DNA of 34,365 nt from Chloroflexota bacterium (GTDB lineage: Bacteria; Chloroflexota; Dehalococcoidia; Lucifugimonadales; Lucifugimonadaceae): contig JAJCYX010000397.1 in the NCBI GenBank assembly GCA_029262715.1, forward strand, positions 1 through 34,365. Direction: 5' to 3'. This document shows positions 14,333 through 34,365 of the stretch, one piece after another. Each line of letters opens with the position of its first letter. The first letter of the stretch is position 1. A model generated the notes under the pieces. That model was not told the DNA's origin and ran no database searches. It saw only the letters and a program-made list of their open reading frames with translations. The position numbers were made by a program, and so were the translations under genes.

Positions 14333-14387
14333 GTTTCCATCCCAAAACACATTCATTCGGCTTTGCTTGGGGTGAAATGCTCAATGC

Positions 14388-14663: not shown

Positions 14664-14678
14664 CTTCGGCGACAGCTT

Positions 14679-15220: not shown

Positions 15221-15893
15221 AGTGAATATTACTAATCTGAACGAAACGAAGAGCGATTCCCGGCGGACTGCGGTTTCTGCGCTGTTTCTGATGGACGCGC
15301 TGCGTGGCAGCTTGCCTGACAGTCATTTCCTGAACGTGTCTCGCTTCATCAACGGGTCACCCGTCTCCATCTGTGCAGGGACACCGCAATTACCGGCCGC
15401 CGCCCGTTGGATTGGTGAAAGTGAATCTGACACCTACATCTGTCTCTCACTTCTAGACGAACGCCTGCACCGGAAGCAGCGCATAAGTGAAGACCGCGTT
15501 ACGGGATTGCTGGGCTTTGCGATGGACTTCGATGCAGTGACGCCTTATCGCAAACGCTTCGACATCTTCGAGCATGTGGACCAGGCAATTGAGGCGGTCA
15601 AAGAGTTGCCGGTGCAACCGCGCTTAATCATCAAGACTGGCGGCGGGATTCAACCCGTCTGGCTCTTCAAGGAACCTTGGATGTTGAAGACCGATGCAGA
15701 CCGGGCCGCGGCCAAAGGAAGGAGCAGAAAGCTTCAGGACGCGGTGAGGCGGATAGTCCATGCGCGGTTCAACGTGGTCCTGGACTCCACTGCTGACCTG
15801 GCAAGGCTCGTACGCGCTCCCGGCTCTCTGAACTGCAAGACCAACCCGCCTGTTGAGGTTGAAGTCGTCTTCGGCACCGGGGATTACCTGTGA
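15204..15893 (+). CDS. Archaeo-eukaryotic-type primase-polymerase (AEP prim-pol) domain protein
   Basis: Motif I DxD (GFAMDFD), motif II-like TGGGIQPVWLF, motif III region VLDSTADLARLVRAPGSLNCK. The stop overlaps the start of the helicase gene (GTGATGG). Confidence 0.65.
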   Translation: MRQISEVNITNLNETKSDSRRTAVSALFLMDALRGSLPDSHFLNVSRFINGSPVSICAGTPQLPAAARWIGESESDTYICLSLLDERLHRKQRISEDRVTGLLGFAMDFDAVTPYRKRFDIFEHVDQAIEAVKELPVQPRLIIKTGGGIQPVWLFKEPWMLKTDADRAAAKGRSRKLQDAVRRIVHARFNVVLDSTADLARLVRAPGSLNCKTNPPVEVEVVFGTGDYL

Positions 15894-17530
15894 TGGCAGA
15901 GCCAACAAGCGTTGATGCTGCGCTCGACCAGTTCACGGTTGCGGCAGAGGGTCTGCCAGAAGTGCCGAAAACCACGGCGAACGGCGCTGGCTCCGGTCGG
16001 AACGATGAACTGGCACGCACCGCCGGACATCTTGCGCGGCAGGGCTTGACCAATGAGCAGATAAGGGCTGGCGTGCTGGAAAAGAACGCGCAGTTTAACG
16101 ACCCGCTGCTTGAGGATGAAGTCGAGCGCACAGTGCTCCGGTCGGCTGAGAAGTGGGCGCAGCCTGCTGAACGGTACACCGTGCCGGAGCATATCGAGGA
16201 CTCAGACATCGGCAACGCTATGGCGTACGCGCAGTACGTCGCCGGTCTACTCCTGTGGGATGGCGTCAATCACCAGTGGTGGTGGTGGCACGGCCACAAG
16301 TGGACCCCTGACACCGACCGGCGATATGAGCTGTACTTGAAACCCATCATCGACCGGTTGTTTCAGCAGGGCGCTTTGATGGAAGGCGACCGCCGTGACC
16401 GGCGCATGAAGTTCCTCTCCTCTCGGCTAAGGTCCCGGCAGGCACAGCTAGCCATGATCGAGGGAGCTAAGCCATACCTGCCGGTCTCACCTACTGAGTT
16501 CGACGCCAACCCGTACTCATTCGCATTCAGCAATGGCGTACTGGACCTGTTGAACGGTGAGTTCAAGCCGCCGGACGCGGCGAACATGAACAGCAAGGCG
16601 GCAGGTTACGACTATGACCCGGACGCTGACTGCCCGCGGTGGCTCGCGTTCCTTGACGAGATATTCCAAGGCGACGCAACGTTCATACGCGACCTTCAGC
16701 TAATCATGGGCGAGTCCCTGTCCGGCGATACAGGGAAGTCCCTGTTCATCATCTTCTGGGGTGAAGGCGCAAACGGCAAGTCAACTGTGCTCAAGGTGCA
16801 TGGCAGGCTGCTCGGCGACTATGCCGTCCACACGAAGTCGAGCGTGTTCGCCGCCCGTGACTCAGCGAACGTCAAGGGCTGGGATGTTCACCCGCTAGTG
16901 GGCGCGCGCCTTGTCACGGCGATTGAGGCAGACGCCACCAAGTACCTGAACGAATCCACGGTCAAGAACATGACCGGCGATGACCGGATGCGCGCCGAGA
17001 AGAAGTACGGGATGTCATTCGAGTTTGAGCCGACGTGGTTGCCGGTCATGGCGACGAACTCCAAGCCACGGACCCGAGGCGCAAATGAGGCTCTATGGCG
17101 TCGGCTGAGGCTACTTGAGTTCAACTACCAGATCCCTGAAGCCAGCCGGATGAAGGGCTACGCTGACCGCTACCTGTTGCCTGAACTGCCCGGAATCTTC
17201 AACTGGGCATGGCAGGGCTTCCGTTCAATCCAGGACGCGGGCGGAGTGGTCCAGTTCTCAGACCGGGTGACGGTTGCCACTGATCAGTACCGCCAGAGCC
17301 AGGACGTGCTCGGCGAGTGGCTGGACCAGCGCGCGGAAACAAACGCGGAAAGCCGCGTGCCGCTCAAGGATGCTTTCGCCAGCTACAGGGATTTCAGCGG
17401 CGACGCTGACTATGTGCTCGGCAAGCGCGCCTTCACCGAAGCGATGGAGGAACGGGGCTTCCGAACCGTCGTGGGGAAGGCAAAAGCACGGTTCGTGACA
17501 GGGTTGAGTCTGACGGAGGGTGTATTTTGA
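15890..17530 (+). CDS. Phage/plasmid primase P4-family C-terminal protein (PriCT-1 + D5_N + SF3 helicase)
   Basis: 546 aa. PriCT-like GRNDELARTAGHLARQGLTNEQI, D5_N-like middle region, Walker A in FIIFWGEGANGKST (GxxxNGKS/T, typical of P4/D5 SF3 helicases), then a Walker B and sensor region. Confidence 0.88.
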   Translation: MMAEPTSVDAALDQFTVAAEGLPEVPKTTANGAGSGRNDELARTAGHLARQGLTNEQIRAGVLEKNAQFNDPLLEDEVERTVLRSAEKWAQPAERYTVPEHIEDSDIGNAMAYAQYVAGLLLWDGVNHQWWWWHGHKWTPDTDRRYELYLKPIIDRLFQQGALMEGDRRDRRMKFLSSRLRSRQAQLAMIEGAKPYLPVSPTEFDANPYSFAFSNGVLDLLNGEFKPPDAANMNSKAAGYDYDPDADCPRWLAFLDEIFQGDATFIRDLQLIMGESLSGDTGKSLFIIFWGEGANGKSTVLKVHGRLLGDYAVHTKSSVFAARDSANVKGWDVHPLVGARLVTAIEADATKYLNESTVKNMTGDDRMRAEKKYGMSFEFEPTWLPVMATNSKPRTRGANEALWRRLRLLEFNYQIPEASRMKGYADRYLLPELPGIFNWAWQGFRSIQDAGGVVQFSDRVTVATDQYRQSQDVLGEWLDQRAETNAESRVPLKDAFASYRDFSGDADYVLGKRAFTEAMEERGFRTVVGKAKARFVTGLSLTEGVF

Positions 17531-17646
17531 GCGGCCTTTTTGAGTTCAAGGGTGTATTTCGGAACCAATACTCAAGAACTTTTCCCATGCGCACACGCGA
17601 AAAGAACTTCTTGGAATGTAGTTCCCAAAGTACACAAATACACCCT
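17518..17646. repeat. Repeated 11-mer AGGGTGTATTT (two direct, one inverted) just after the helicase gene
   Basis: GGGTGTATTT occurs at 17518-17527 and 17550-17559. The inverse AAATACACCCT occurs at 17636-17646. A 10/11 match (AAATACACCGT) directly follows the tRNA CCA end at 12461-12471. Confidence 0.6.
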
Positions 17647-18044
17647 GACTGGTGGACTGAAACACGCTCCAATCCTGACCGTGGCACTGGCCGCAACACA
17701 ACAATAGGTAGGCCGCAGTTATCTGTTCGGATGGCGAGAGCTTCCAACTTGGCCGACTCGCCAGGACAGGCCAAATTACCTGTTCGGAGCGAAGATGCTG
17801 ACTGGAAGCTGATTGTGTCCGTGATTTGGACTAATCCGAAAAATATGCAGAGATGGCCGCAGGGGTCTTCAAATCCGCCCATACCAAACTGCCGGCCATG
17901 CCGAACTGTTGGCGCAAGGCGGAGCCTCCGCGCTATGTGCTAGTAGCGAGGGGCAGGCCGGGACTGGCTGTGCTCCGGCCTGCCCACCGCCGGTGGCGAG
18001 CGCGTGACCGGTAAAAATCCGATTCTGTGGCGAGGTTGTAAGTC

Positions 18045-19319: not shown

Positions 19320-19666
19320 CCGGGTTTTCAAATTTGGTACTTCGATACGGATGTCATATAGCACAGTTCTCCGAAGGTCCACGATCTGTTCCTCAAAACG
19401 AGAACTGCCGGACAACGCTTGTTACTTTAGCGTTGCCCGGCTCAGACCTCGGCGTGGATCCTTAAGAATGGTGAACTGCTGCGTTGTCGCCAGTTCTGAT
19501 CACTCACTTGTCTAGGGCAATCAGCGCCTCCCGTGCCCGGCCAAGGATCTGTTCGGCGTGGCGAACTTCATCCTTGGTTTCCGCCGGCAAACGAATTTCA
19601 GTCGACGGGTTTACATCTGCTCGACGGGCAGCAGGAGACGTGTGCCCCTAAGTTCAACTTGTTCCG

Positions 19667-20206
19667 CTATCGAATGGGCGCGATCACTCCGTTGGGCGGA
19701 ACATCGCCGGTGAGTTCGACTGATTCTGCATCTATGCTCGTGATTGATCTCCCGAGCGGAACATCACCGGTGAGTTCGACTGATTCTGCATCTATGCTCG
19801 TGATTGATCTCCCGAGCGGAACATCACCAGTGAGTTCGACTGATTCTGCATCTATGCTCGTGATTGATCTCTCGAGCGGAACATCGCCGGTGAGTTCGAC
19901 TGATTCTGCATCTATGCTCGTCATTGATCTCCCGAGCGGAACATCGCCGGTGAGTTCGACTGATTCTGCATCTATGCTCGTGATCGTTACCTTCGGAGCA
20001 ACCCCGGAGGCGAACCCCACCGCCCCGACGATTACACCAGCCATGACGACGAAAACTACTGCCACCGCCGCTATCGCCAGCGTGTGCCTTTTTAGGAATC
20101 GAACTGGTGCCGACGTGCGATTGCCCTGTGATTGATACGCTGACGCTTCTCTTTCCTCTGCCTGGGCCTGCATTTCAATAAGTCCGATGGAAGACAATTT
20201 GGCCAC
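19667..20206 (-). CDS. Membrane-anchored protein made of five tandem 20-aa repeats (possibly a truncated gene)
   Basis: 179 aa: a charged N-terminus, one TM helix (TLAIAAVAVVFVVMAGVIVGAVGF), then five copies of TSIDAESVELTGDVP(L/P)xRS. The ORF ends 12 codons after the last repeat. Confidence 0.55.
   Translation of the reverse strand: MAKLSSIGLIEMQAQAEEREASAYQSQGNRTSAPVRFLKRHTLAIAAVAVVFVVMAGVIVGAVGFASGVAPKVTITSIDAESVELTGDVPLGRSMTSIDAESVELTGDVPLERSITSIDAESVELTGDVPLGRSITSIDAESVELTGDVPLGRSITSIDAESVELTGDVPPNGVIAPIR
19696..19986. repeat. 60-bp tandem repeat, about 5 near-identical copies
   Basis: The period is exactly 60 nt (each copy aligns with one 60-nt sequence line, 19681-19980). There are only 1-2 substitutions per copy (e.g. 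ACATCGCCGG / ACATCACCGG / ACATCACCAG). Confidence 0.95.
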
Positions 20207-20916: not shown

Positions 20917-21323
20917 GCGGCGACGGAACGGTGCTCGACTGAATCTGCGATTTGACGGAATGGCGACGCGACGGCGCAAAACCTTATCTTGAGCCTCATA
21001 CACGATCTTCTGACCGCAGCTGCCGGTAACAGTAGGCAGCTCGTAGCGACCAGCGATCAAGTAGAGTCCTCCATGGAGTAGTCTCTGACCACAGGCCGAG
21101 TTGGTTAAAGGGAATTCTCATGTTCGGCCATTGGCAACTCTCCACAATCACATTCTGATCCGAAATGCGAACCGGGCAATCAGAAGAGGGTAACCTGTGT
21201 GTTAATGCGGGATCGCATGTTATTGCATTGTTCGGTGTCACCGCCCTGTAGAATTTGGTTCACGTCGCTTGCGGGGAGTCCAGGAGTGGTACTTTGCGAG
21301 ATGCCATAGCGTACTTTGTTGTA

Positions 21324-22031
21324 ATGACCGATCCACCAAGTGCATCCACTTGGCGACTCTACTCTTCCGATCCTCAGAGAAGTTATCTGATCGGGCGAGA
21401 CCCAGATCTCGATATCGTCGTGGGCGCGGTGGACGGATCACCGATTTCCCGTAAACACGCGGAGATTGTCGTTCGGGGACGAGAATCCTTTTTGACCGAT
21501 TTGAACAGCACCAACGGCACCGAGCTGAACGGCAGGCAGCTCGTTCCGGGGAGACGTAATGTTCTTGAAGATGGAGCCGAGATCTCGTTCGCTGGCGGAT
21601 TTATTTCCGCACTTTTTCAAATAGAGCAGGAGAATAATACGGTCAGGATAGGTCATTCGGAGAGGAAAATACTCGGTGGCGGACAGCGAAATAATCAATC
21701 AACTGTATCACGCGGTTTGTTGCTCATCACCAACGAACGCAGGATCGTTATAGACGGTATTCCTCAACCCGACCTCAGCGATCAAGAATGGAATTTACTG
21801 AGCTGCCTGTATGAACGTGCAGGTACGACCTGCACTTACGGACAATTATTAAAGGCCGTGTGGAGTCAATCATATGGATACAGCAACAATAACATTGCCG
21901 CCTTAGTAAGACGCATTCGATCTCGCCTGACAACGGGAAACTGGTCCCTGATCAACATCAGGAATGTCGGCTATCGCCTTGAGCCGTTCATTATTTCATC
22001 GGATGCCAATCACGATCCGCCGGATGTCTAA
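21324..22031 (+). CDS. FHA domain + OmpR/PhoB-type winged-helix DNA-binding protein
   Basis: FHA: YLIGRDPDLDIVV...ISRKHAEIVVRG..FLTDLNSTNGTELNG. C-terminal Trans_reg_C: LSDQEWNLLSCLYERAG..CTYGQLLKAVW.....NNNIAALVRRIRSRL......IRNVGYRLEP. Alternative starts are TTG 21294 (AGGAG 7 nt upstream) and TTG 21255. Confidence 0.85.
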   Translation: MTDPPSASTWRLYSSDPQRSYLIGRDPDLDIVVGAVDGSPISRKHAEIVVRGRESFLTDLNSTNGTELNGRQLVPGRRNVLEDGAEISFAGGFISALFQIEQENNTVRIGHSERKILGGGQRNNQSTVSRGLLLITNERRIVIDGIPQPDLSDQEWNLLSCLYERAGTTCTYGQLLKAVWSQSYGYSNNNIAALVRRIRSRLTTGNWSLINIRNVGYRLEPFIISSDANHDPPDV

Positions 22032-22134: not shown

Positions 22135-25100
22135 TCATGCCTTCAATATCTCCCGCTTTGCCAGCACACGCTCAAGCAGCGGCTTCATACCCAGTTCGGT
22201 GGCGATGGCGATGGCTTCGTCTTGCAGTTCGGTGGCATTTTCACGGTCGCCGGGGGCGTTTCGGTCAAGAAGAAAATCAGAGTAGTCGGCACAGGTCCAG
22301 GCCATTTCGGGACGATAACCTGAAGTTTCTCCGAATTCAATACTTTTTTCGTAATAATCGGCGGCTTCATCGGGATTGCCCATTAGGGCATTCGCAAGTC
22401 CAGCAACTCGGTAGTAGCCACTACCTAGACGATTCCAAAATGTATCAGAATGTTTTTCAATACTGTGAAAATGTCTAGATGCGGAAGCAGCGTCGTTTAA
22501 ACTCACAGCTAGATGACAAGCCTGCAATTTTCTTAGCGTTTTTACCTCACGCTCCATATTGACTGACGTTATACTGTGTTCCACCATGCGCAAAGTTTCC
22601 TCCATGTCATAGTCGATTCCATGTGTTCGATAAATGTGGGCAAACGTGCCGGCAAACATCATGTGGAAATTAAACGTATGTTTTAGTTTCTCCGCATTTT
22701 CTTTTAGTGACTCTATATCGCCGAGTTCATTGGCTACAGCTATTTGAACCACCAACGCCCTGGGTTCGTCCGGGCTAACTGCTAAAGCTGCACGTATGTC
22801 ATCGGTCGCTCCATGCCAGTCACCAAGATTTGATCTTAGTTGTGCCCGGTTGCTATAAGCCCACGCAAGAGCATGATTGCTTCTAAGACGGTTGGCGGCT
22901 TGAACTCCGTTGTCACAAACGGATTCTGCTTCCAGAGGTAAACCTATCGAAGTAAGATGTAGCGCAGTGTAGTCATAAGCGGCCAGTTTTAGCGATAAAT
23001 CCTCACTTCGGTCTGCTAGTTGTATGACTTCCGAGAGTATTTTGTTTGTTTCGTCAACTGAAAACTCCATGTGTTGCGCTAATAGTTGGGCCGTCAGTGC
23101 ATTTAACAATTGGTCATTATCATTATCAGCTCTGGCAATTGCGACCGCCTCGGCCGCTGCTGTGATATCAATTATTCCTAATTCCATCGATTTGAATAAT
23201 GCTAAATTTGATAGCAAACGACCTCTAAACGATGAGTTCTTCGGAGTGATAGCAATTGCTTGTTGGTACATATCTGACATACCCTCTGTTCCGTGGAAAT
23301 GAGGAAATGGAGCGATTGCGACTTTGACGGCGTCTTCAATATCGCCGTTTTGAAGAAACCAATAAAAAGCATCTTGGTACAACTTTGCCGATGCAGATAA
23401 ATCCGTTCGTTTCGCTGTCGCAGCCTTGGCCCTTGCCAACAATGCGGTCATCTTTGCCCACATTTCGTCTTTTATGTTGTGCCTCTCAAGTGCCGACGTT
23501 AAATAACCAAAGGCTCTGTCATAAGCGTGAGAGTCGAGTGCCTGTTGACCCGCGGCTACGTGATACTCGATCAACTTCTTCGTCCCCAGCACTGTCTCAG
23601 CTTCGGCGAAATGCTCAGCCAGCTCAGCGGCGTGATCTTCGGCATCATCCCCGTAATAGTCTTCAAGAGCCTCGGCGATCCGGGCGTGCATTCTGACCGC
23701 ACGGGTATGTGAAAGCTCCTGTGTCAGGGTGTCCTGCATCTGAGCGTGGGTGAACTGGTAGAAGCCGACATCTTCTTTCAACTCCTCGATGATGCGGGCA
23801 GAAAGAGCTTCATCCATCGCATCGAGAAGTTGACTATCCGTCGTGTCCTCGGCCAGTATCTTCAGTACGTCGAACTGGAACTGCCTCCCGATTACAGCGG
23901 CTATCGTCAGCACCTCGTTGCACCGCTCGGAGAGACGGTCAAGCCTTCGGCCAATGACTTCTCGCACACTCTCGGGTATCCGTATCTCCCACGAGGTTGT
24001 TCCACCCTTCGATGACTGGCCGGAGGTGATGTCCCCCTCCTGTATGAGCAGGCGCACAGTCTCGGTAACGAACAGTGGGTTACCTTCGGTCTGCTGAAAG
24101 ACGGTCTCCACGAGCGCAGGGGGTGGGGTGATACCTGCCGCTATCTCGATAAAGCGCCGCACATCGTGCTTTTGCAGTCCCCTGAGGACTACCCGCTCGA
24201 ACAGCCGCTCCCTAGAAAGGTCACCAAGGGTGACAGAAAGCGGATGTCTCCTGTTCAGCTCTATGTCCCGGTAGTTGCCAATGATGAGGATTCGGGAGTT
24301 GGCAAGCTCCCTTGCCACGAACTCCAGCAGCACAAGTGACGGCTTGTCCGCCCAGTGCAGGTCTTCCAGCATCAGCACGAGCGGCGTGGAAGATGCTGTG
24401 TTCTTTAGAAATGTAGCTATGGAGTCGAAGAGTCTGAACCTTGCTGACTCAGGGTCTTCTATCATCACCGCCTGCGGTATGTCAGGGAGCTTCTCCTTCA
24501 CGTCTGAAACCACCTCGGCGATGACAGAGGCGGTGGAGCCCATCTGGTTACGAAGCGACCGAGGCTCTGTTGCCGCTACATGAGAACGGATAGCCTGCAA
24601 CCACGGCCAGTACGGAGGCGCTCCTCCCGACTCGTAACTGCGACCCCAGAGCACTTGTGCTCCGCGCATCCCGGCATACGTCGCAAGCTCCTGTGCGGTG
24701 CGGGTTTTGCCGATGCCCGGCTCTCCGACCAGCGTCAGAAGCCTGCCTTTGCCCGAGAGAACCTCCTCGAAGACAGCCTTCAGCTGGTCCATCTCCCTCT
24801 GCCTGCCGACAAAGACTCCGCCCGCCATGGAATCGAGGGAGCCTTTGTTCTCCGCCGATTCTTCCACAGCAGACAGGTCTACCGACTGCAAAACAGTGAG
24901 CACTTCATCCGCGGACTCCGGTCTCTCTGCCGGGTCCTTGGCCAGCAGCCGCATGATCAGGGATTCGAGCGTCTTCGGCATCGACTGGTTGTGCCAACTA
25001 GGAGCTACAGGAGGGGTGTTGACGTGCTGGGAGATGATGGCGATGTCGTCGTCGCCCATGAACGGAGGCCTGCCTGTGCTCATCTCGTAGAGCATAGCGC

Positions 25101-25968
25101 CCAGCGAGTAGAGGTCAGCTCTTGGTGTGACCTCTCCACCTGTCGCCTGTTCAGGTGGCATGTAGTTGACGGTGCCAACCATCACCTTCTCGACGGTGAG
25201 GCGTGAGCGGTCTGTAGCTACGGCCTCACCGAAGTCCCCGATCTTTGCCGCTCCGTCCTCGTCCATCCAGATGTTGCTGGGCTTGAGGTCGCGGTGGACG
25301 ATGCCCTTGCCGTGGGCGAATGAGAGTCCCTGCGCGGTCTGGGTGGCAATGCGGATTGCATCTGCAAGATCGAGCGGGCCATCTGCGTCTTCGATCAGGT
25401 CTTCCACATCTCCTCCGCCCATGAGCGGCTGCACCATGAATGGCTGTGGCGTTCCGTCTTCTGCGGGCTCTTCGCCGAGGTCGTAGATCGGCATGATGCA
25501 GGGATGGGTTCCCATCCTGCCCATAGCCTGCGCCTCTCTCCTGACCCGCTCTCTTCCCGTCTCGTCGAGTCCGTCTGTCTTGATGAGCGCAAACGCCACG
25601 TCGCGGTCCAGCGTGTTGTCATGTGCGAGATACACCTTCTTCTTGCCACCTTCACCGAGGAGCTTGCTAACGGTGTAACGGCCTGAGGCGAAGGAGGTGG
25701 GTTGGTCGGTTGGAACGCTGGGATCGCTGGGATCGCTGGCTACGATATCTGGCAAGTCAGTTTCTATGGGCTGCCCAGCCGACCCAGTCCAGGCCGACAT
25801 GGCTTTGTCGGCCATCAACTTGAATGAACGAGCGTCTTCGTTCTCAGAATCAAGTGCTAAAGCGCCGGCCACAAACTCCAGCACCCTGTTCCAGTCACCT
25901 GATCTGGTAGCTTCCTCCGCCTGATCGAGGAGAGTGTCTATCTGTCGCTGCACACGCTCACTTGGCAT
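22135..25968 (-). CDS. Ser/Thr protein kinase - AAA (AAA_16/STAND-like) ATPase - TPR protein, paralog A
   Basis: Kinase: GEGGKKKVY, VAFALIK, HRDLKPSN, DFG, MPPE. NTPase: Walker A GEPGIGKT and Walker B LVLMLEDLHWAD. Long helical/TPR C-terminus. The start is set at MPSERVQR..., homologous to the paralog B start; the ORF-track start at 26010 adds 14 aa with no counterpart in B. Confidence 0.9.
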   Translation of the reverse strand: MPSERVQRQIDTLLDQAEEATRSGDWNRVLEFVAGALALDSENEDARSFKLMADKAMSAWTGSAGQPIETDLPDIVASDPSDPSVPTDQPTSFASGRYTVSKLLGEGGKKKVYLAHDNTLDRDVAFALIKTDGLDETGRERVRREAQAMGRMGTHPCIMPIYDLGEEPAEDGTPQPFMVQPLMGGGDVEDLIEDADGPLDLADAIRIATQTAQGLSFAHGKGIVHRDLKPSNIWMDEDGAAKIGDFGEAVATDRSRLTVEKVMVGTVNYMPPEQATGGEVTPRADLYSLGAMLYEMSTGRPPFMGDDDIAIISQHVNTPPVAPSWHNQSMPKTLESLIMRLLAKDPAERPESADEVLTVLQSVDLSAVEESAENKGSLDSMAGGVFVGRQREMDQLKAVFEEVLSGKGRLLTLVGEPGIGKTRTAQELATYAGMRGAQVLWGRSYESGGAPPYWPWLQAIRSHVAATEPRSLRNQMGSTASVIAEVVSDVKEKLPDIPQAVMIEDPESARFRLFDSIATFLKNTASSTPLVLMLEDLHWADKPSLVLLEFVARELANSRILIIGNYRDIELNRRHPLSVTLGDLSRERLFERVVLRGLQKHDVRRFIEIAAGITPPPALVETVFQQTEGNPLFVTETVRLLIQEGDITSGQSSKGGTTSWEIRIPESVREVIGRRLDRLSERCNEVLTIAAVIGRQFQFDVLKILAEDTTDSQLLDAMDEALSARIIEELKEDVGFYQFTHAQMQDTLTQELSHTRAVRMHARIAEALEDYYGDDAEDHAAELAEHFAEAETVLGTKKLIEYHVAAGQQALDSHAYDRAFGYLTSALERHNIKDEMWAKMTALLARAKAATAKRTDLSASAKLYQDAFYWFLQNGDIEDAVKVAIAPFPHFHGTEGMSDMYQQAIAITPKNSSFRGRLLSNLALFKSMELGIIDITAAAEAVAIARADNDNDQLLNALTAQLLAQHMEFSVDETNKILSEVIQLADRSEDLSLKLAAYDYTALHLTSIGLPLEAESVCDNGVQAANRLRSNHALAWAYSNRAQLRSNLGDWHGATDDIRAALAVSPDEPRALVVQIAVANELGDIESLKENAEKLKHTFNFHMMFAGTFAHIYRTHGIDYDMEETLRMVEHSITSVNMEREVKTLRKLQACHLAVSLNDAASASRHFHSIEKHSDTFWNRLGSGYYRVAGLANALMGNPDEAADYYEKSIEFGETSGYRPEMAWTCADYSDFLLDRNAPGDRENATELQDEAIAIATELGMKPLLERVLAKREILKA

Positions 25969-26030
25969 AGTCGCGGCATGATACGCGAAGTCAGGTGGTG
26001 TGCGTGCCATCTATCGGCACATGAGAATAT

Positions 26031-26314: not shown

Positions 26315-26938
26315 CTACTGGGACATTGCCCGACCGTCCCACTCATCTAGAGGGTTTACAAGCGCTTTCCAGTTGGTAATAAGCTCACGGTTTTCCAAAC
26401 CGCCTCGGCCTGTTATCCAGAGAAGAGTCTCCCATCTCGGTGTATCGAGTGGTGACCACGGAAAGAGACGACGCAATATCCGATCGCACAAGTCCTCGGG
26501 AGGCGAGATCGAAACACTCAGACCCCGTAAAACATCATGCCCGTGGAGTAATACTTCGTTACATCCCATCGCTAAATAACCCTCTGGATCGGGAGAGCCC
26601 CAGGGATGCCATCCTCTAGCATCGGTGGGCGAACCATTGAAAACACATGCCAGAAGCTCTGCATTGAGTGAGAGAAGTCGAAGTGACTCGTTCACTTCAA
26701 GCTGGACAACAGAAAAGAAGGACGGCTTCGATTTGATCTGATCCCGATTTGCAAGGATTGTTGCATACCAAGCGAAGCCGTATACCAAATGGCCTAATGT
26801 GTGCCGCCTAGTCCAATCCATACCTGTGGGTTTGCCGTCCCAATCTTCAACTGTCTGACCTGACAAGGCATTAACGACATGTTCGGTCGATAACCTAATG
26901 TCGCTGACGGAAACGGGCTCACGGATTTCAGCGTTCAT
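26315..26938 (-). CDS. DinB / MDMPI_N-like (mycothiol maleylpyruvate isomerase N-terminal domain family) protein
   Basis: 207 aa. N-terminal ...DWDGKPTGMDWTRRHTLGHLV... resembles the DinB_2/MDMPI_N helix with its metal-binding His. ...WETLLWITGRGG sits near the C-terminus. The start overlaps the kinase B stop (ATGA at 26935-26938). Confidence 0.5.
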   Translation of the reverse strand: MNAEIREPVSVSDIRLSTEHVVNALSGQTVEDWDGKPTGMDWTRRHTLGHLVYGFAWYATILANRDQIKSKPSFFSVVQLEVNESLRLLSLNAELLACVFNGSPTDARGWHPWGSPDPEGYLAMGCNEVLLHGHDVLRGLSVSISPPEDLCDRILRRLFPWSPLDTPRWETLLWITGRGGLENRELITNWKALVNPLDEWDGRAMSQ

Positions 26939-29900
26939 GCCTTCAATATCTCCCGCTTAGCTAGCACTCGCTCCAGCAATGGCTTCATGCCCAGTTCTGT
27001 AGCGATGGCGATGGCTTCGTCCTGCAACTCGATGGCCTTTTCACGGTCACCGGGGGCGCTGCGGTCAAGGAGCATTTCGGAGTAGTCGGAGCAGGTTCGC
27101 CCCTGTTCCGGGCCAAAACCGCATGCTCGGCAGTGCGTTAGCGCAGCTTCAAAATGATCGTAAGCCTTTGAATAATCACCAAGTGCACTTGCGAACTCTC
27201 CCAGGATTCGCTCGTCGTGTTCGTAAAGGCCGGGTACGCCAGAAACGAGAAATCCCGGTGTCGTCAATCGCTCGAGCTCTGAATATTGTTCCTGCACTAC
27301 TTTCTTGTCGTCTGCCTTTATGGCAAGTCGCCCGAGAGCAATATGCATCACTTTCCTGACGCTCGGAGGCGTGCTCGTCCGTTCTCTAAGCGCAGTCTTA
27401 AGATCGCTCATCCAACCCTGACTGTCGGGCAATTCGTTGACTAGAGACCTTAAGTCCCACAACGTCGGCCCCACCCAGAACCAGTAACGTAATGATGAGT
27501 CTTGGGTACGGTACAGATAGTCTCTGGCAGACTCAAAATCGCCTGTCGAGTATTCGATCAAAGCCCTCGATGATAGATTTCGAGCGTGATTGGGTTGCGC
27601 CTCGATTGCCTTGTCGCTATACCGCCGAGCCGCGTCCCACTGACCGGTTTCCATTTCTATCAGCTGGCTGTAAAAACCGGCATCAGAAATCCAGAATCGA
27701 GAATTCAGTTTGTCGGCCATGGACCTCGCCTGGCTTGCATGTTGGCGGGATTCGGAAAGCTGGCCCATGCCCATGAGCATGCCCGCAGCGTATTGGTGAG
27801 CTCGGATAGTCGCTCCGATATTGTTCGTGTCTGACGCCAGCTCAGCTGCGCGTAATGACTGTTCGTAGCGAGCATCATTATTCAGGTGATACCCGTTAAT
27901 GCTGGCGGAGACCACGAGTGTTCTGAGTTCAAGGTCACTGTCTGATTCGCGAGCGGCGATAGCCAAAGCGGTGTCCAAGACTTCGAGGCCTTGTTCTCCG
28001 TTGCTGCGCTCCTCAAACAAAAACTCGCCGTATTTCGTCAGCAATCTGCCTGCTTCCTGCGAATTCTCCTGAACCAGTTTCATAGCTTCTTCGAGCAGAG
28101 AAACTACACCCGTCAGTCCGGTGAAATTAGGAATGTCGGTCAAGGCTACGTACAGTGCTTTTTGGGTTTGTCCTGCATCCATGTAACTATCGAAAGCTTG
28201 ACGTAACGAAGCGACTGCACTCGACATCGATTCGCGTTCGGATGTGGCGATCTCACAGCGAGCAAGACCATGAAGTGCTTCAGCCTTCGTGACGGCATCC
28301 AATGTTTCTCCGGCCGCTTTTATCACACGCAAGAATTGCCGCTGAGCGCTCTCATATGCGAATCCGCTGAGCGCTGCATGTCCAGCATTCAATCCGTATC
28401 TGACCAACCCTTCTGGCCCCAACACCGTTTCGGCCTCTGCAAAGTGCTCAACTAGTTCAGCGGCATTCTCGTCGGCTGCATCTCCGTAGTATTCTTCGAG
28501 GGCTTCGGAGATGCGGGCGTGGAGCCTAACTCGGCGTGTAAGTGATAGTTCCTCTGTCAGCGTCTCCTGCATTGAGGCGTGTGTAAATTGGTAGAGACCA
28601 ACCTCGTCCAACTCCTCGATAACCCTGGCCGAAAAAGCGTCGTCGATGGCATCGAGCATCTGGCCGTCTGTCGTGTCCTCCATCAGCATTTTCAGCACAT
28701 CGAACCGGAACTGGCGGCCAATGACGGCAGCAATCGTCAGCACCTCATTACAACGCTCAGACAGCCGGTCGAGACGCCTGCCGATGACCTCTCGCACACC
28801 CTCAGGTATTCGTATCTCCCATGATGTTGTCCCGCCCTCCGTCTTCCGACCGGACGCAATGTCTCCCTCCTGTATCAGGAGCCGCACGGTCTCGGTGACG
28901 AACAGCGGATTGCCCTCGGTCTGCTGAAACACGGTGTCGACAAGCGCAGGTGGGGGAGTGATGCCCGCAGCAATCTCGATAAACCGTGCAACGTCGTGCT
29001 TCTGCAGCCCTCTGAGCAGGATGCGGTCGAACAGCCTCTCCCTGGTCAGGTCTCCGAGCGTCACAGAAAGCGGGTGCCTGCGATTGAGCTCTATGTCACG
29101 ATAGTTGCCGACAATCAGGATCTTCGAGTTGGCAAGCTCCCTGGCAACGAACTCCAGCAGCATCAAGCTCGGCTTGTCCGCCCAGTGCAGGTCTTCCAGC
29201 ATGAGCACGAGCGGAGTGGAAGAAGATGCCTGCTTCAGGAAGGTGGCTATCGCGTCGAAGAGCCTGAAGCGCGCTGACTCCGGGTCGTCGATCGGCATCG
29301 GCTCAGGCAGACCAGGAAGCTTCTCCTTCACGTCTGTCACCACCTCTGCGATGACAGAAGCGGTGGATCCCATGTCCCCTCTCAGGGACTCAGCGGAGGC
29401 CGAGGAGACGTGGCTGCGCATCGCCTGCACCCAGGGCCAGTACGGCGGCGCGCCTCCAGACTCGTAGCTGCGGCCCCACAGCACCTGCGCCCCGCGCATC
29501 GCTGCATACGTGGCGAGCTCCTGCGCGGTACGAGTTTTGCCGATGCCGGGCTCACCAACCAGGGTGACCATGCGTCCGTGTCCGGACAGCACCTCCTCAA
29601 AGGCTGCCTTTAGCTGGTCCATCTCTTTGTGGCGGCCGACGAAGACGCCGCCTGCCATCGAGTCGAGACTCGTCTCTCTTCCCTCGGACTGTTCAACTGC
29701 AGACAGATCGATACCACTTAGAGCCGAAAGCACTTCATCCGCCGACTCCGGCCTTTCAGCGGGGTCCTTGGCGAGAAGCCGCAGTATCAGAGAGTCGAGC
29801 GTCTTCGGAATAGATGAGTTGTGCCATGATGGCGCGACAGGCGGGGTATTGATGTGCTGAGAGATGATTCCTATTTCATCATCAGACATGAACGGGACGC

Positions 29901-30759
29901 GGCCTGTGCACATCTCGTAGAGCGTCGCTCCCAGCGAGTAGAGGTCTGCCATCGGAGTCACTTCTCCGCCAGTAGCCTGCTCCGGTGGCATGTAGTTGAC
30001 CGTGCCGACCATCACCTTCTCTACCGTGAGGCGTGAGCGGTCTATCGCAACCGCTAGTCCGAAGTCACCGATCTTTGCTGCACCGTCTTCATCAAGCCAG
30101 ACGTTGCCTGGCTTCAGGTCCCTGTGGACGATGCCCTTGCCGTGGGCAAAGCCAAGGCCCTGTGCCGTCTGGGTTGCGATGCGGATAGCGTCTTCAAGAG
30201 GTAGTGGCCCGTCCGCGTTTTCGATGAGTTCTTCAACATCACCGCCACCCATGAGAGGCTGAACCATGAACGGCTGCCCGGCTTCGTCACCGAGGTCGTA
30301 GATTGGCATGATGCAGGGGTGTGTTCCCATGCGACCCATGGCCTGAGCCTCACGCTTGACCCGCTCACGTGAGGTTTCGTCGAGTCCCTCTGTCTTGATT
30401 AGCGCGAAGGCAACGTCTCTATCGAGCGTGTTGTCGTGGGCTAGGTAGACGCGCTTCTTGCCGCCTTCACCGAGAAACTTTGAGACGGTGTAGCGACCTG
30501 AGGCAAAGGACTTGGGGGTGACCGATGTATCAGCCGCATGATCGGTCTTCGCTGGAGGGTTCGGATCACCACCTGATTCAGCAGAGCCAAGCCAGCGGTT
30601 GGCGGCAGTTAGGTACGCTGTGGCCTCCGCGTTGTCGGTATCGACATCGAGCACGCTCTCAGCAAGATTCCTGACAGATCCCCAGTCACGATCAGCTTCA
30701 GCCTGATCAATCTCATCAAGCAGCCGGTCTATCCGTCTCTGCACACGCTCACTTGGCAT
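26935..30759 (-). CDS. Ser/Thr protein kinase - AAA (AAA_16/STAND-like) ATPase - TPR protein, paralog B
   Basis: 1274 aa with the same motifs as paralog A (HRDLKPGN, DFGLAV, GEPGIGKT, LVLMLEDLHWAD). The last ~40 aa are almost identical to those of A (...ELQDEAIAIATELGMKPLLERVLAKREILKA). Confidence 0.9.
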   Translation of the reverse strand: MPSERVQRRIDRLLDEIDQAEADRDWGSVRNLAESVLDVDTDNAEATAYLTAANRWLGSAESGGDPNPPAKTDHAADTSVTPKSFASGRYTVSKFLGEGGKKRVYLAHDNTLDRDVAFALIKTEGLDETSRERVKREAQAMGRMGTHPCIMPIYDLGDEAGQPFMVQPLMGGGDVEELIENADGPLPLEDAIRIATQTAQGLGFAHGKGIVHRDLKPGNVWLDEDGAAKIGDFGLAVAIDRSRLTVEKVMVGTVNYMPPEQATGGEVTPMADLYSLGATLYEMCTGRVPFMSDDEIGIISQHINTPPVAPSWHNSSIPKTLDSLILRLLAKDPAERPESADEVLSALSGIDLSAVEQSEGRETSLDSMAGGVFVGRHKEMDQLKAAFEEVLSGHGRMVTLVGEPGIGKTRTAQELATYAAMRGAQVLWGRSYESGGAPPYWPWVQAMRSHVSSASAESLRGDMGSTASVIAEVVTDVKEKLPGLPEPMPIDDPESARFRLFDAIATFLKQASSSTPLVLMLEDLHWADKPSLMLLEFVARELANSKILIVGNYRDIELNRRHPLSVTLGDLTRERLFDRILLRGLQKHDVARFIEIAAGITPPPALVDTVFQQTEGNPLFVTETVRLLIQEGDIASGRKTEGGTTSWEIRIPEGVREVIGRRLDRLSERCNEVLTIAAVIGRQFRFDVLKMLMEDTTDGQMLDAIDDAFSARVIEELDEVGLYQFTHASMQETLTEELSLTRRVRLHARISEALEEYYGDAADENAAELVEHFAEAETVLGPEGLVRYGLNAGHAALSGFAYESAQRQFLRVIKAAGETLDAVTKAEALHGLARCEIATSERESMSSAVASLRQAFDSYMDAGQTQKALYVALTDIPNFTGLTGVVSLLEEAMKLVQENSQEAGRLLTKYGEFLFEERSNGEQGLEVLDTALAIAARESDSDLELRTLVVSASINGYHLNNDARYEQSLRAAELASDTNNIGATIRAHQYAAGMLMGMGQLSESRQHASQARSMADKLNSRFWISDAGFYSQLIEMETGQWDAARRYSDKAIEAQPNHARNLSSRALIEYSTGDFESARDYLYRTQDSSLRYWFWVGPTLWDLRSLVNELPDSQGWMSDLKTALRERTSTPPSVRKVMHIALGRLAIKADDKKVVQEQYSELERLTTPGFLVSGVPGLYEHDERILGEFASALGDYSKAYDHFEAALTHCRACGFGPEQGRTCSDYSEMLLDRSAPGDREKAIELQDEAIAIATELGMKPLLERVLAKREILKA

Positions 30760-30962: not shown

Positions 30963-31286
30963 ATGGAGAAGATGTGGCGGTGTGCGGTGTGTGCAGGTGA
31001 TAGCCGCTCCTACTCGAATGGAGTGCAGTGGGAGTTCGCGCCGGTGAAGCACTCGGAACGCCGCGTCCTGGCTCACCTGCTGGAGTTCCACGACATCTCG
31101 CCCCTTGACCTGAAGTCGGCCAGACTGGTCGAGAGCGACTACTCAGGTGGATTGAGCATCGGAAGCCGCGTACTAGCAATGTGGTCTCGCTCAGACGCGA
31201 CGGGAGACGATATGCACCGCTCCGGCAACTGGCTTAGCGATGTGGTGCGGCATCAACCGAAGCCGCAGGGTAGACCGCCGTATTGA
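30963..31286 (+). CDS. Small Cys/His-containing protein with conserved proline-rich C-terminal tail (may be two in-frame units)
   Basis: 107 aa. N-terminal WRCAVC...H......HLLEFH (possible zinc-binding), with a paralog at the window end. The last 24 codons (31212-31286, MHRSGNWLSDVVRHQPKPQGRPPY) have their own GGGAG RBS 5 nt upstream and match the short-ORF family. Confidence 0.5.
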   Translation: MEKMWRCAVCAGDSRSYSNGVQWEFAPVKHSERRVLAHLLEFHDISPLDLKSARLVESDYSGGLSIGSRVLAMWSRSDATGDDMHRSGNWLSDVVRHQPKPQGRPPY

Positions 31287-31538: not shown

Positions 31539-31907
31539 CTACTTTTTCGGGTTTCCAAGAAAGAAACGGTTCGGATTACACTCGTGGCCAGGCGATTCGC
31601 CCAGTATGTCCATCGCTTCCTGCGCGCTGACGCCCGCAAAGTTCTTTACGAGCACGAGGAACGTGCCGTATGACTGGGCTTGTGTCGGTTCTTCGGCTTC
31701 GATCAGGTCGTTCAAACCCGAGAACGAACAGATAGACGCCGCCCCGTCTCCGGTCCAGAAGCCATCAATGGGGGTGGTCCCACCTTCTGCGCCTCCCGGC
31801 CCGGGCGGTCCTTTCACCTCGCCAGCAGATGCCGTGGCTGATGTCACGTAACCGACAGCCAGCACCAGAGCAAGTGCGGCAAGCAGGGGAAGATAGATAC
31901 GCTTCAT
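31539..31907 (-). CDS. Small secreted protein (signal peptide), unknown family
   Basis: MKRIYLPLLAALALVLAVGYVTSATASA|GE is a Sec-type signal peptide with an AxA site. AGGAG RBS ~7 nt upstream. Two Cys in the mature part. Confidence 0.6.
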   Translation of the reverse strand: MKRIYLPLLAALALVLAVGYVTSATASAGEVKGPPGPGGAEGGTTPIDGFWTGDGAASICSFSGLNDLIEAEEPTQAQSYGTFLVLVKNFAGVSAQEAMDILGESPGHECNPNRFFLGNPKK

Positions 31908-32082
31908 GACTCTCTCCTATCGATATGACTTTGGTCATCGTGCCGGGAGCGAGCAGATTCTATGTCGCCGGTCCGGTATTGGGCAATGTATGAGGCTCTC
32001 GGCATTGACGTTGATAACTCCAGAATCTCTTTGCCCAGGATGGCCGCCAAGTAGACGTGTTCAACTTCCACTCTCTCTCACA

Positions 32083-32157
32083 ATGAACCCGGTCGGATAC
32101 TGGCTATGCGACGTTCCGAAGCACCAGCCGAAGCCGCAGGGTAGGCCGCCGTATTAG
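32083..32157 (+). CDS. Short ORF (24 aa) of the GxW...HQPKPQGRPPY-stop family
   Basis: MNPVGYWLCDVPKHQPKPQGRPPY-TAG has the same length and register as 31212-31286. Similarity to that copy starts at the ATG and is absent upstream. No obvious SD. Confidence 0.4.
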   Translation: MNPVGYWLCDVPKHQPKPQGRPPY

Positions 32158-32482: not shown

Positions 32483-32529
32483 ACAGAAACCTGCCGATAA
32501 ACCAGCCGCAGGGCAGGCCACCGTACTAG
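32479..32529 (+). pseudogene. Degenerate copy of the short-ORF tail (..LPINQPQGRPPY-stop)
   Basis: CCG CAG GGC AGG CCA CCG TAC TAG keeps PQGRPPY-stop through three synonymous changes. One CCGAAG unit is missing, and only 16 codons are open (GTG at 32479). Confidence 0.45.
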
Positions 32530-32591
32530 ACGCGCAAGACCCGCCGCACAGCGCGACGGGCCTAACTACCAAGAATCATGAAGATTCGAGA

Positions 32592-33212
32592 TTACTTCTC
32601 GCCTTTTTCGACCTTCCACGTCGTTTCGGCATTACCCTTCTTGTTGCCCTCTGAGTCGTATTCCGTGTAGGTGACCTTGTACTCCTCAAAGTTGTTGGCG
32701 ATGGTCACCGTCGGCGGGCCTTCGGTGGCAGTACCGCTCACTTCCCAACTCGTGATCTGCACGTTCTTAAGTTCGTACTTGAGGTACGTTGCCCTAGAAC
32801 CTCCGTAATTAGCGGTCTGCTCGATTTCCAGTTTTGGAATAACTTCGCCCATGTTGAGTTTTTCGAGCAACTTCACGGTCGATTTTTCATATTCCATTGT
32901 TAGGCGCATGTCCTCGACGATGACGCTGCCTCTTCGTCGAGACTGGCCCGTTGCTCCACCGCCGGGCTTGTTTGATCCCCAATCAATCGAAAGTATGTCA
33001 ATCCACTTGTCGTGGTTTGCGTCTTGGGATTCGCCATCGATCCCATCGTACTTGGCGAAATAGTTCTCTCCGCTTAGTGATGGCTGTGGCACTTCATCTG
33101 ATTGTGTTCGGGGTGCTGCTTCAACTGACGAGTTAAACGCAGCGGTCAAACCTATAGTGCTGACGGCAACTAAAACCATTACACCAATGGCAATCCTGAG
33201 ATGCCTGGGCAT
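32592..33212 (-). CDS. Hcp (type VI secretion tube protein / PF05638-like) homolog with N-terminal Sec-type signal peptide
   Basis: YFAKYDGIDGESQDANHDKWIDILSIDWGSNKPG aligns with the Hcp N-terminus (MFIKIGDVKGESKD..H..EIDVLAWSWG). It continues through ...VEDMRLTMEYEKSTVKLLEKLNMGEVIPKLEIE... and ...NVQITSWEVSG.....TVTIANNFEEYKVTY. It is preceded by MPRHLRIAIGVMVLVAVSTIGLTAAFNSSVEA|AP. GAGGA RBS. Confidence 0.85.
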   Translation of the reverse strand: MPRHLRIAIGVMVLVAVSTIGLTAAFNSSVEAAPRTQSDEVPQPSLSGENYFAKYDGIDGESQDANHDKWIDILSIDWGSNKPGGGATGQSRRRGSVIVEDMRLTMEYEKSTVKLLEKLNMGEVIPKLEIEQTANYGGSRATYLKYELKNVQITSWEVSGTATEGPPTVTIANNFEEYKVTYTEYDSEGNKKGNAETTWKVEKGEK

Positions 33213-33328
33213 TTCCGTCCTCTTCGTAATTAGCCTGTTTCGTCATTGCATGCAGAGTAAGGGAAGACGTGGAGACTCACCGTTAAGAATCGGTGAATAG
33301 TAGTTTGAAAGAAGTGTGAAGTATTTAT

Positions 33329-33373
33329 TGAACTGCGAACCGTCGGCCGAAACCGCAGGGTAGGCCGCTGTAA
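33329..33373 (+). repeat. Degenerate remnant of the short-ORF tail (..PKPQGRPL-stop)
   Basis: CCG AAA CCG CAG GGT AGG CCG CTG TAA matches the family core. There is no start codon, and the upstream part (TTGAACTGCGAACCG) is out of frame relative to the WLCDV region. Confidence 0.5.
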
Positions 33374-33446: not shown

Positions 33447-33773
33447 CTAACCTGGCCAGATTGGTGAGAAGTCGGGATTGCCACCTGGTCCTGCATTAGG
33501 ATTGCCGGGACCTTCAGGGTTCAATGCGTTGGCATTGGCATGAACGCCCGCCTGGTTGTTCCCTGGCAGCAATGACGTTCCGGCAGGAGGCCCGATATCC
33601 TGGACGCCGTTGTCACCGTTGTGGTCATCGGCGTTAATGACTCCATCACCGACGATTGGGCACAAAAATGCCGTATCCACACCGTTGTCTGCGTCAGCCG
33701 ACGCCATCACGGTACCGCCAAGCATAGCTGCTGCGAATGCGGCAGCGACAATAAGTACTCGTAACTTGACCAT
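33447..33773 (-). CDS. Small secreted Gly/Asn/Pro-rich protein (signal peptide), unknown family
   Basis: MVKLRVLIVAAAFAAAMLGGTVMASA|DA is a signal peptide. AAGAGGAG RBS 6 nt upstream. The mature part has low complexity (GPGNPNAGPGGNP). Confidence 0.55.
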   Translation of the reverse strand: MVKLRVLIVAAAFAAAMLGGTVMASADADNGVDTAFLCPIVGDGVINADDHNGDNGVQDIGPPAGTSLLPGNNQAGVHANANALNPEGPGNPNAGPGGNPDFSPIWPG

Positions 33774-33963: not shown

Positions 33964-34004
33964 CCCTTGTCTCTCCTTGTGTCTCCTTGTGTCTCCTTGT
34001 GTCT
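33964..34004. repeat. 10-bp tandem repeat GTCTCCTTGT (about 4 units)
   Basis: 33981-34000 holds two perfect units, flanked by 9/10 and 7/10 units plus a partial unit. On the minus strand it reads ACAAGGAGAC, repeated AAGGAG Shine-Dalgarno-like cores. Confidence 0.85.
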
Positions 34005-34149: not shown

Positions 34150-34365
34150 ATGCGACTTTCAGTTGGGGGCTTTTCGCGTCCGCATGACATAGAGACCGCG
34201 GTCCTGCTTCATCTGCGCAACCATCCCTCTCATGCGAGGGATGCTGGTGTGCAGGCGGTATGTGGAAGTGATTCCCGCTCCTACTCGAACGGAGTGCAAT
34301 GGGAGTTCGCGCCAGTGAAGCACTCGGAACGCCGCGTTCTGGCTCACTTGCTGGAGTTCCACGAC
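34150..34365 (+). CDS. Paralog of the 30963..31286 small protein, partial (3' end off-window; start uncertain)
   Basis: 34276-34365 differs from 31005-31094 at 5 of 90 nt, all synonymous in this frame (SYSNGVQWEFAPVKHSERRVLAHLLEFHD). The frame is open back to the ATG at 34150 (GTG at 34249 is also possible). A 2-nt indel relative to copy 1 removes the CxxC. Confidence 0.4.
   Translation, partial: MRLSVGGFSRPHDIETAVLLHLRNHPSHARDAGVQAVCGSDSRSYSNGVQWEFAPVKHSERRVLAHLLEFHD

Follow-up and report, generated by a model that had tools for sequence, protein, structure and literature searches.

A homologue of the type VI secretion protein Hcp with a predicted Sec-type signal peptide, on a Chloroflexota contig segment without type VI secretion genes

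The subject of this study is a gene near the end of a 34,365 bp stretch of DNA (contig JAJCYX010000397.1 of assembly GCA_029262715.1, positions 1-34,365; hereafter the window), which originates from a Chloroflexota bacterium of the class Dehalococcoidia. [quoted passage not shown] Textbooks treat Hcp as the marker of T6SS activity, and a missing signal peptide belongs to the definition of the system; canonical Hcp is assembled in the cytoplasm, and its only way out of the cell is the firing of the T6SS. Chloroflexota are generally regarded as monoderm, and we know of no T6SS described in this phylum. We consider it likely (probability roughly 0.7) that the protein is a horizontally acquired Hcp that has been repurposed as a Sec-exported, ring-forming, extracytoplasmic protein. 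It would act independently of a T6SS, because its host is probably a monoderm from a phylum in which no such system is known to have been described.

The hcp gene and its product

The gene and its parts are located as follows.

32592..33212, minus strand: hcp-like gene, 206 codons plus stop, ATG start, encoding a signal peptide, a linker and an Hcp domain (ORF list; PF05638; 89% amino acid identity to locus L007)
33218..33222, minus strand: Shine-Dalgarno sequence GAGGA, 5 nt before ATG1 (GAAGAGGACGGAA directly followed by ATG in the window, AAGGAGGATGAAT directly followed by ATG in L007)
33117..33212, minus strand: Sec-type signal peptide, codons 1-32, with n-region MPRHLR, h-region I7-F26, c-region NSSVEA and predicted cleavage between A32 and A33
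33063..33116, minus strand: linker APRTQSDEVPQPSLSGEN, codons 33-50, Pro/Ser/Glu-rich and predicted to be disordered (low model confidence)
32667..33059, minus strand: Hcp (TssD) beta-barrel domain, codons 52-182, the final strands extending to codon 206 (Pfam, Foldseek)

The Pfam profile PF05638 (T6SS_HCP) matched residues 52-182 over its full length (profile positions 1-129 of 129; E=1.4e-26; 93.7 bits against a cut-off of 23.5), and a family profile search matched the solved Hcp1/EvpC structures at E~1e-21. An AlphaFold2 (AF2) model, based on an alignment of 29 sequences, had a predicted local distance difference test (pLDDT) score of about 80-90 over most of residues 50-200 and of less than 50 at residues 9-47. 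Foldseek matched this model to the Hcp crystal structures 8yun, 4tv4 and 3v4h with a probability of 1.00 and target-normalised template modelling scores of 0.81-0.84. Because the full-model Pfam match, the profile matches to solved structures and the predicted structure agree, the assignment to the Hcp family and fold is secure, by sequence as well as by predicted structure. An earlier note on this DNA, made from the sequence alone, had claimed homology to Hcp along the whole mature region. All motifs that it quoted are present in the translated open reading frame (ORF), namely FAKYDGIDGES..ANHDKWIDILSIDWG, EYEKSTVKLLEKL, NVQITSWEVSG and FEEYKVTYTEY. Of the two profiles that it had proposed as a check, PF05638 bore out the homology, whereas the NCBIfam profile TIGR03344 (TssD) gave only a sub-threshold match (35.6 bits against a cut-off of 58.9).

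The N-terminus has the tripartite layout of a signal peptide. The n-region carries a charge of +2, and the uncharged stretch I7-F26 has a mean Kyte-Doolittle hydropathy of 2.34, compared with at most 0.32 for all other 19-residue windows of the protein. The c-region, NSSVEA↓AP (the arrow marks the predicted cleavage site), has Val at -3 and Ala at -1 and thus fits the -3/-1 rule. The assignment as Sec-type and the cleavage after A32 are based on these rules (hydropathy and the -3/-1 rule) and on conservation: relatives P0002-P0005, P0007, P0036 and others retain the hydrophobic segment plus a (V/A)EA↓AP site. The linker, after which the first Hcp strand begins with YFAKYDG, is variable in length and sequence among homologues and is missing from the diderm-type and archaeal forms. 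The twin-arginine translocation (Tat) motif S/T-R-R-x-F-L-K is not present in the window protein, in which R3 and R6 are not adjacent; Acidimicrobiia relatives do have a twin arginine (T-R-R-G-I-A-I). No PEP-CTERM signal, LPXTG motif or lipobox was found in the window protein, which contains no cysteine and ends in ...TWKVEKGEK.

The only candidate for an alternative start is an internal GTG at codon 41, which lacks a Shine-Dalgarno sequence. The Shine-Dalgarno sequence at ATG1 is conserved, as the equivalent ATG in L007 is preceded by AAGGAGGA. Comparison of codons 1-33 with L007 showed 14 identical codons, 10 with synonymous differences only and 9 with nonsynonymous differences, nearly all of them conservative. 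Judged by this comparison the N-terminal extension is translated and constrained, because the Shine-Dalgarno sequence is conserved, ten codons differ synonymously only and most replacements are conservative. Reading upstream of MAVFAKYDG in the canonical homologues, a stop codon or no hydrophobic stretch was encountered within a few codons. Both the signal peptide described in the earlier note and a start upstream of the hydrophobic segment are thus in line with the conservation among homologues.

T6SS genes at hcp loci

No T6SS core genes were found in the 34 kb of the window, either by tblastn with queries from a Planctomycete cluster (TssC, TssE, TssF, TssG, ClpV, VgrG, ImpE, DUF2169, DUF3540 and a PAAR-like protein) or by Pfam annotation of the main ORFs, as the earlier note had stated. 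At 15 signal-bearing loci, no T6SS genes were found within 10 kb of hcp (or within a shorter span where contigs were short). Full T6SS clusters were recovered from the positive controls (L002, L013, L018, L021 and L023). The Planctomycete relatives of 159 amino acids are encoded inside complete clusters (TssC, ImpE, TssE, TssF, TssG, ClpV, Hcp, VgrG, DUF2169 and PAAR-like), which shows that the subfamily includes working T6SS tube proteins.

The nearest canonical relatives are orphan hcp genes, located far from any T6SS cluster. In a metagenome-assembled genome (MAG) of a gammaproteobacterium (L006/L010, positions 98-3738), an orphan canonical hcp directly follows genes for a Pkinase-HDOD Ser/Thr kinase and a small FHA protein. 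Its product is 87% identical to the mature part of the window protein, and the arrangement resembles that of T6SS threonine-phosphorylation regulators. No T6SS genes were present in the available flanks (about 3 kb upstream and 10 kb downstream).

Distribution of signal-bearing Hcp proteins

The closest relative of the window protein is that of L007, from a MAG labelled Chloroflexota (JAJCYY01), with 89% amino acid identity over the full length. A protein search yielded 754 homologues. Among the 120 closest clusters at 90% identity, 81 had a canonical start (MAVFAKYDG..., 158-162 amino acids) and 37 had a hydrophobic N-terminal extension, counted when 16 or more consecutive residues were uncharged and usually ending at an AxA-like site. 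A hidden Markov model (HMM) search of the full library returned 7,793 proteins at E<=0.001. Of the best 150 representatives at 50% identity, 82 were single-domain proteins with a signal-peptide-like extension and 17 had a canonical start; the profile used contained signal-peptide columns, which biases the ranking toward signal-bearing forms, and several shorter extensions escaped the filter behind the count of 82. A survey of signal-bearing homologues, which the earlier note had suggested without foreseeing its scale, therefore yielded many, in monoderm bacteria, archaea and diderms.

Several types of extension were distinguished, which are mutually unrelated. The type of the window and the MRTYVKL...PVEA↓AP type both carry a linker, and the Acidimicrobiia type has a Tat-like n-region (TTTATRRGIAIG) and a long linker. 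In the direct-fusion type, MTNKTILISGMILGAILITGFSIPDASA↓AV, the extension is joined to the first strand, and cleavage would restore the canonical Hcp N-terminus. The relatives also included forms with a short, classical signal peptide of the diderm kind, for example MKTLLMAVLALGLAWSAAPTVEA↓AG. In total, 123 extensions fell into 73 similarity groups, a number that overestimates the independent events.

For the taxonomic survey, one genome per species was scanned and the upstream frames were read to establish the N-terminal form. Signal-bearing forms were found in Chloroflexota (L007), several Acidimicrobiia MAGs and Nitrosopumilaceae MAGs, and on contigs labelled delta-proteobacterium, Proteobacteria, Sphingomonadales and Polarisedimenticolaceae. 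A Dehalococcoidia MAG (L012, identical to P0054) encodes a signal-bearing Hcp on a single contig of 3.27 Mb (CBDEVT010000001.1). Canonical forms were found in Planctomycetes, Gammaproteobacteria and some Acidimicrobiia. On the Nitrosopumilaceae MAG contigs L029, L031 and L040, hcp is located in DNA with a G + C content of 32-33%; L031 and L040 are truncated by the end of the contig. The hcp gene of L029 (9914-10459; G + C content of the locus 32%) encodes a full, archaeal-looking signal peptide and has other secreted proteins as neighbours. The Nitrosopumilaceae hcp genes have a G + C content of their own of 35-40%, and are thus largely ameliorated.

Two hcp genes (4414-4917 and 10001-10660) are present 5 kb apart in an Acidimicrobiaceae MAG (L042, CAMYIJ01), with no T6SS genes nearby. 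One of the products has 219 amino acids and a Tat-like signal; the other, of 167 amino acids, starts in a linker-like region and has no hydrophobic segment. The Acidimicrobiia MAGs L014, L015, L024, L032, L034 and L035 contain an hcp with a canonical start and no T6SS gene in the flanks.

In a rough neighbour-joining tree of the mature domains, signal-bearing clades were interleaved with canonical clades. This interleaving, together with the unrelated signal sequences, indicates that export signals were probably gained repeatedly and that the signal-bearing forms are polyphyletic.

Selection and conserved surfaces

Over codons 51-206, comprising the Hcp domain, the window gene and that of L007 share 96 identical codons, while 53 codons differ synonymously and 7 nonsynonymously. 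The hcp gene is under strong purifying selection; because of the excess of synonymous differences, a decaying gene is excluded. In its mature domain the window protein shares 85-90% identity with canonical, orphan Hcps of 159-162 amino acids from Gammaproteobacteria and 70-75% with Hcps from complete Planctomycete T6SS clusters. Conserved columns are common to the signal-bearing and the canonical sets, the long loop PGGGATGQSRRRG among them. The sole consistent difference between the two sets is the loop of residues 157-163 (NASGNDE), for most positions of which conservation reaches 90% or more in the canonical forms, and which varies in the signal-bearing forms. This pattern is consistent with a fold and ring-building surfaces that are kept, and with the relaxation of one surface that would be needed only within a T6SS.

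Proteins with six tandem Hcp domains

The representative library contains about two dozen proteins, with a length of 1,000-2,164 amino acids, that have exactly six tandem PF05638 domains per chain. The set of tandem-Hcp proteins includes P0121-P0130, P0132, P0137, P0139 and P0148; none is encoded in the window. Seven PF05638 domains were recognised by Pfam in P0130, and six in each of P0121, P0123, P0126 and P0128. Many of the tandem proteins begin with a Planctomycete extracellular motif (RRRLFLEQLEARRLLA; PF07595 match in P0128), and P0130 and P0255 have a hydrophobic, signal-like N-terminus. These proteins may be single-chain, pseudo-hexameric exported rings. Since a covalent Hcp hexamer would need six domains, they may be taken as tentative, indirect support for exported rings. 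An AF2 model of the six-domain protein P0126, run without an alignment, had a pLDDT of 28.5.

Genomic setting of hcp in the window

The following features were identified in the remainder of the window.

12385-12457: tRNA gene
12586-13611: tyrosine integrase (Pfam), directly after the tRNA gene and followed by unannotated ORFs
15890-17530: D5_N/PriCT primase-helicase-like protein (Pfam)
21255-22031: FHA and OmpR-type (Trans_reg_C) regulator
22135-26010, minus strand: Ser/Thr-kinase-AAA_16-TPR (STAND) paralogue, 1,291 amino acids
26315-26938: DinB/MDMPI-like gene, between the STAND paralogues
26935-30759, minus strand: Ser/Thr-kinase-AAA_16-TPR (STAND) paralogue, 1,274 amino acids
30963-31286, 31906-32157 and 34255-34365 (cut by the window end), plus strand: small ORF family, with a copy at 10689-11009 of L007
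31539-31907, minus strand: small secreted-protein gene, signal-peptide-like start
33447-33773, minus strand: small secreted-protein gene, signal-peptide-like start
32506..32525, plus strand: 20-nt repeat motif CCGCAGGGCAGGCCACCGTA, 67 nt past the hcp stop
33353..33372, plus strand: the same 20-nt repeat motif, located 141 nt upstream of the start of hcp

The first 12 kb contain housekeeping genes, for ABC-2 permeases, an M20 peptidase, a class I aldolase, FBPase, dehydrogenases and a CoA-transferase. The right-hand part starts with a region (12385-17943) that looks like an integrative element inserted at the tRNA gene. A second copy of the tRNA 3' end was not found in the window, and neither was the far boundary of the element. 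The two STAND paralogues, spaced by about 4.8 kb, share 76-83% DNA identity over long aligned blocks. The FHA and Ser/Thr-kinase genes were considered as candidate T6SS threonine-phosphorylation regulators; this was dropped, as they encode STAND-type kinase-AAA-TPR proteins and an FHA protein with an OmpR-type Trans_reg_C regulator. An ORF at 19533-20135 contains five tandem units of 60 nt (19674-20044; 88-91% identical, the last 64%) and has a weak AMIN-domain match only. A unit of 10 nt, CCTTGTGTCT, is present four times in the intergenic DNA at 33965-34004, upstream of the secreted-protein gene 33447-33773.

In a stretch of 3.6 kb around hcp, small secreted-protein genes on the minus strand alternate with small ORFs on the plus strand and with the repeated motif. 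The start of both secreted proteins is signal-peptide-like, as the earlier note had described for the neighbours of hcp. Neither has a counterpart in the available flanks of L007 (about 5 kb upstream and less than 1 kb downstream). Each small plus-strand ORF lies tail-to-tail with a small secreted-protein gene. The products of the small ORF family have an N-terminal CxxC...HxxxxH and a common C-terminus, NW(L)SDV..(R/K)HQPKPQGRPPY*, and gave no Pfam match. The copy at 34255-34365 differs from 30984-31094 by synonymous changes only in the codons compared by eye, and the L007 homologue of 30963-31286 has 95% amino acid identity.

The 20-nt core of the repeat, CCGCAGGGTAGGCCGCCGTA, occurs four times on the plus strand of the window (31263-31282, 32134-32153, 32506-32525 and 33353-33372), with 0 copies expected, and a degenerate copy is present near 20539. 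The core is embedded in a repeat of 26-73 nt. It forms the 3' end of the small plus-strand ORFs (...HQPKPQGRPPY*) in three places and is an orphan remnant flanking hcp in two. In L007 the motif also flanks hcp on both sides; in the close relatives L043 and L044 it is missing. An alignment of the hcp segment (32504-33372) with L007 spans 874 columns with 79% nucleotide identity, and both its ends coincide with copies of the motif. Outside this segment, the window and L007 share only the small ORF 30963-31286. The hcp segment thus looks like a movable module. A repeated motif of 20-37 nt lies between hcp and the secreted-protein genes next to it, but the reading as an integron-like (attC-like) cassette was rejected: the motif has no inverted-repeat partner, conserved secondary structure or Rfam match, and is absent from L043 and L044. 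A scan for promoters and terminators around hcp gave chance-level matches. The G + C content of hcp (50.7%, compared with 57% for the window) was discarded as a signal of transfer, since hcp is below its surroundings at most of the other loci examined as well, including a canonical gammaproteobacterial one.

Discussion

In the mechanism that we propose, the cleavable N-terminal signal peptide would direct the precursor to the Sec translocon, and signal peptidase I would cut after Ala32. This would leave a mature protein of about 174 amino acids outside the cytoplasmic membrane, consisting of a flexible linker of 18 residues and the Hcp barrel. The mature form probably still assembles into a hexameric ring, because of its high identity to the canonical Hcps of Gammaproteobacteria and Planctomycetes and because their conserved columns are kept. 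The ring, or a scaffold of this kind, would work outside the cytoplasm and bind some ligand inside its lumen or at its faces. Horizontal uptake from a T6SS-bearing diderm is the probable origin of the gene, and the export signal would have been added later, as apparently happened repeatedly in other lineages.

A more general form of this proposal is put forward tentatively, and we consider it less probable. Exported Hcp proteins might constitute a distinct, widespread and T6SS-independent class, which arose by repeated horizontal transfer from T6SS-bearing diderms into Chloroflexota, Acidimicrobiia and ammonia-oxidising archaea, with a Sec or Tat signal added each time. The ring could be an extracellular scaffold, or a mimic that soaks up the Hcp-binding effectors of T6SS attackers, and the six-domain chains could be its covalent version. 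To our knowledge, no T6SS has been described in Chloroflexota, Acidimicrobiia or ammonia-oxidising archaea.

Several observations weigh against a repurposed, exported ring. Given the free variation of the loop 157-163, at least one interaction surface is probably altered. An all-against-all comparison of the ORFs within 5 kb at the 15 signal-bearing loci revealed no shared neighbour besides hcp and hence no clue to a ligand of the ring. The same comparison lends no support to the suggestion of the earlier note that the ring could be a carrier for the neighbouring small secreted proteins, as no neighbour is conserved among these loci. The composition of the HMM profile favours signal-bearing forms in the count of 82 among 150, and the identification of the signal peptide is rule-based, with an h-region of 20 residues that is long enough for an uncleaved signal anchor.

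Such an anchor, by which the Hcp domain would be held on the outer face of the cytoplasmic membrane and tethered by the 18-residue linker, is the main rival explanation, and we regard it as unlikely. The h-region has the length of a transmembrane helix, the positive n-region predicts an N-in, C-out topology, and the flexible Pro/Ser/Glu linker of the Chloroflexota and Acidimicrobiia forms is like that of tethered surface proteins. However, signal peptides of monoderm bacteria are typically long. Moreover, after the h-region many homologues have a helix-breaking N/S/P stretch, together with a (V/A)-E-A↓A-P site that is conserved and has small or neutral residues at -1 and -3, and the short signal peptides of the diderm and archaeal forms end in AxA right before the first Hcp strand, so that cleavage would restore the canonical Hcp N-terminus.

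The other explanations are less likely than a signal anchor. The contig could originate from a diderm, or from a genome with a T6SS elsewhere, in which case the protein would be a periplasmic accessory or variant Hcp of that system, or mis-binned MAGs could mislead the taxonomy. Some contigs with a signal-bearing Hcp are indeed binned to Proteobacteria and to Acidobacteriota-like diderms (L019, L036-L039), and as the nearest canonical relatives are themselves orphan genes, distance from a cluster by itself proves little. Nevertheless, the Dehalococcoidia contig of 3.27 Mb is immune to binning error, and the Nitrosopumilaceae genes are on three separate MAG contigs of low G + C content, with the signal peptide seen in L029. 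In addition, as far as is known, T6SS tubes assemble in the cytoplasm, which would bar a Sec-exported subunit. We therefore consider this explanation improbable. The least probable, and already largely refuted, is that the extension is an annotation artefact, with translation from an internal start giving a cytoplasmic Hcp with a short extension, or that the gene is a non-functional remnant of transfer. The in-frame GTG at codon 41 and the many close homologues of 159 amino acids without an extension would fit an internal start. Against it, the Shine-Dalgarno sequence is strong and conserved at ATG1 and absent at GTG41, and in L007 and P0002-P0007 the extension remains open and signal-like while showing synonymous changes. 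Chance cannot account for the dozens of mutually unrelated, well-formed signal peptides found on homologues, and the ratio of synonymous to nonsynonymous differences is not that of a decaying gene.

Compared with canonical Hcp/TssD proteins (PF05638; Hcp1 of Pseudomonas aeruginosa, 1Y12; the Yersinia pestis protein, 3V4H; EvpC of Edwardsiella tarda, 3EAA), the window protein belongs to the same family and has the same fold and conserved columns. It differs from them by the Sec-type signal and linker, the lack of a T6SS gene in 34 kb, the probable monoderm host and a score below the TIGR03344 cut-off, and the NASGNDE loop is relaxed in the signal-bearing forms. The window protein thus departs from a working TssD in three defining features: it has a predicted signal peptide, no linkage to T6SS genes was found, and its score is below the TIGR03344 threshold. 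Evolved Hcps (Hcp-ET) likewise combine an Hcp core with an extension that changes its use, but theirs is a C-terminal effector or toxin domain fired by the T6SS, whereas the window protein has an N-terminal export signal and no effector domain. The tail-tube proteins of phages and of extracellular contractile injection systems (T4 gp19 and Afp1 type) have related tube-forming beta-barrel folds and no signal peptides, and contractile injection systems occur in Actinobacteria, Chloroflexi and archaea. The window protein, however, matches PF05638 specifically, and no sheath, baseplate or spike gene is located nearby.

The PEP-CTERM sorting signal marks exported proteins that are processed by an exosortase. 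In a passage of Howard et al. (2021, mBio, PMC8262886), Hcp-domain proteins with such a signal are excluded from the analysis. These are likewise Hcp domains that would pass the Sec system, but their anchor is C-terminal and their origin diderm, while the window protein has no PEP-CTERM signal. Going by that passage, exported Hcp domains have therefore been seen before and set aside. This exclusion was the only relevant item that we found in the full-text literature, with incomplete coverage; there was no description of an Hcp with a signal peptide or of proteins with tandem Hcp domains, nor any account of an Hcp from Chloroflexi, Actinobacteria or archaea.

The signal-bearing Hcps thus join the Hcp fold to another route of export, in a context that is probably independent of the T6SS. 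They are widespread and apparently unstudied. Their presence in microbes not known to have a T6SS suggests a role of Hcp outside this system that has not been described. If this is true, metagenomic counts of "T6SS genes" based on PF05638 are inflated by proteins unrelated to the T6SS. As ready-made pseudo-hexamers, the six-domain single chains would be of interest to protein engineers, and the exported proteins would offer a natural system for probing the ligands of an Hcp ring that does not serve as a tube subunit. The Hcp ring would then have a second life apart from the contractile machine, also in archaea and in monoderm bacteria, neither of which is expected to build a T6SS.

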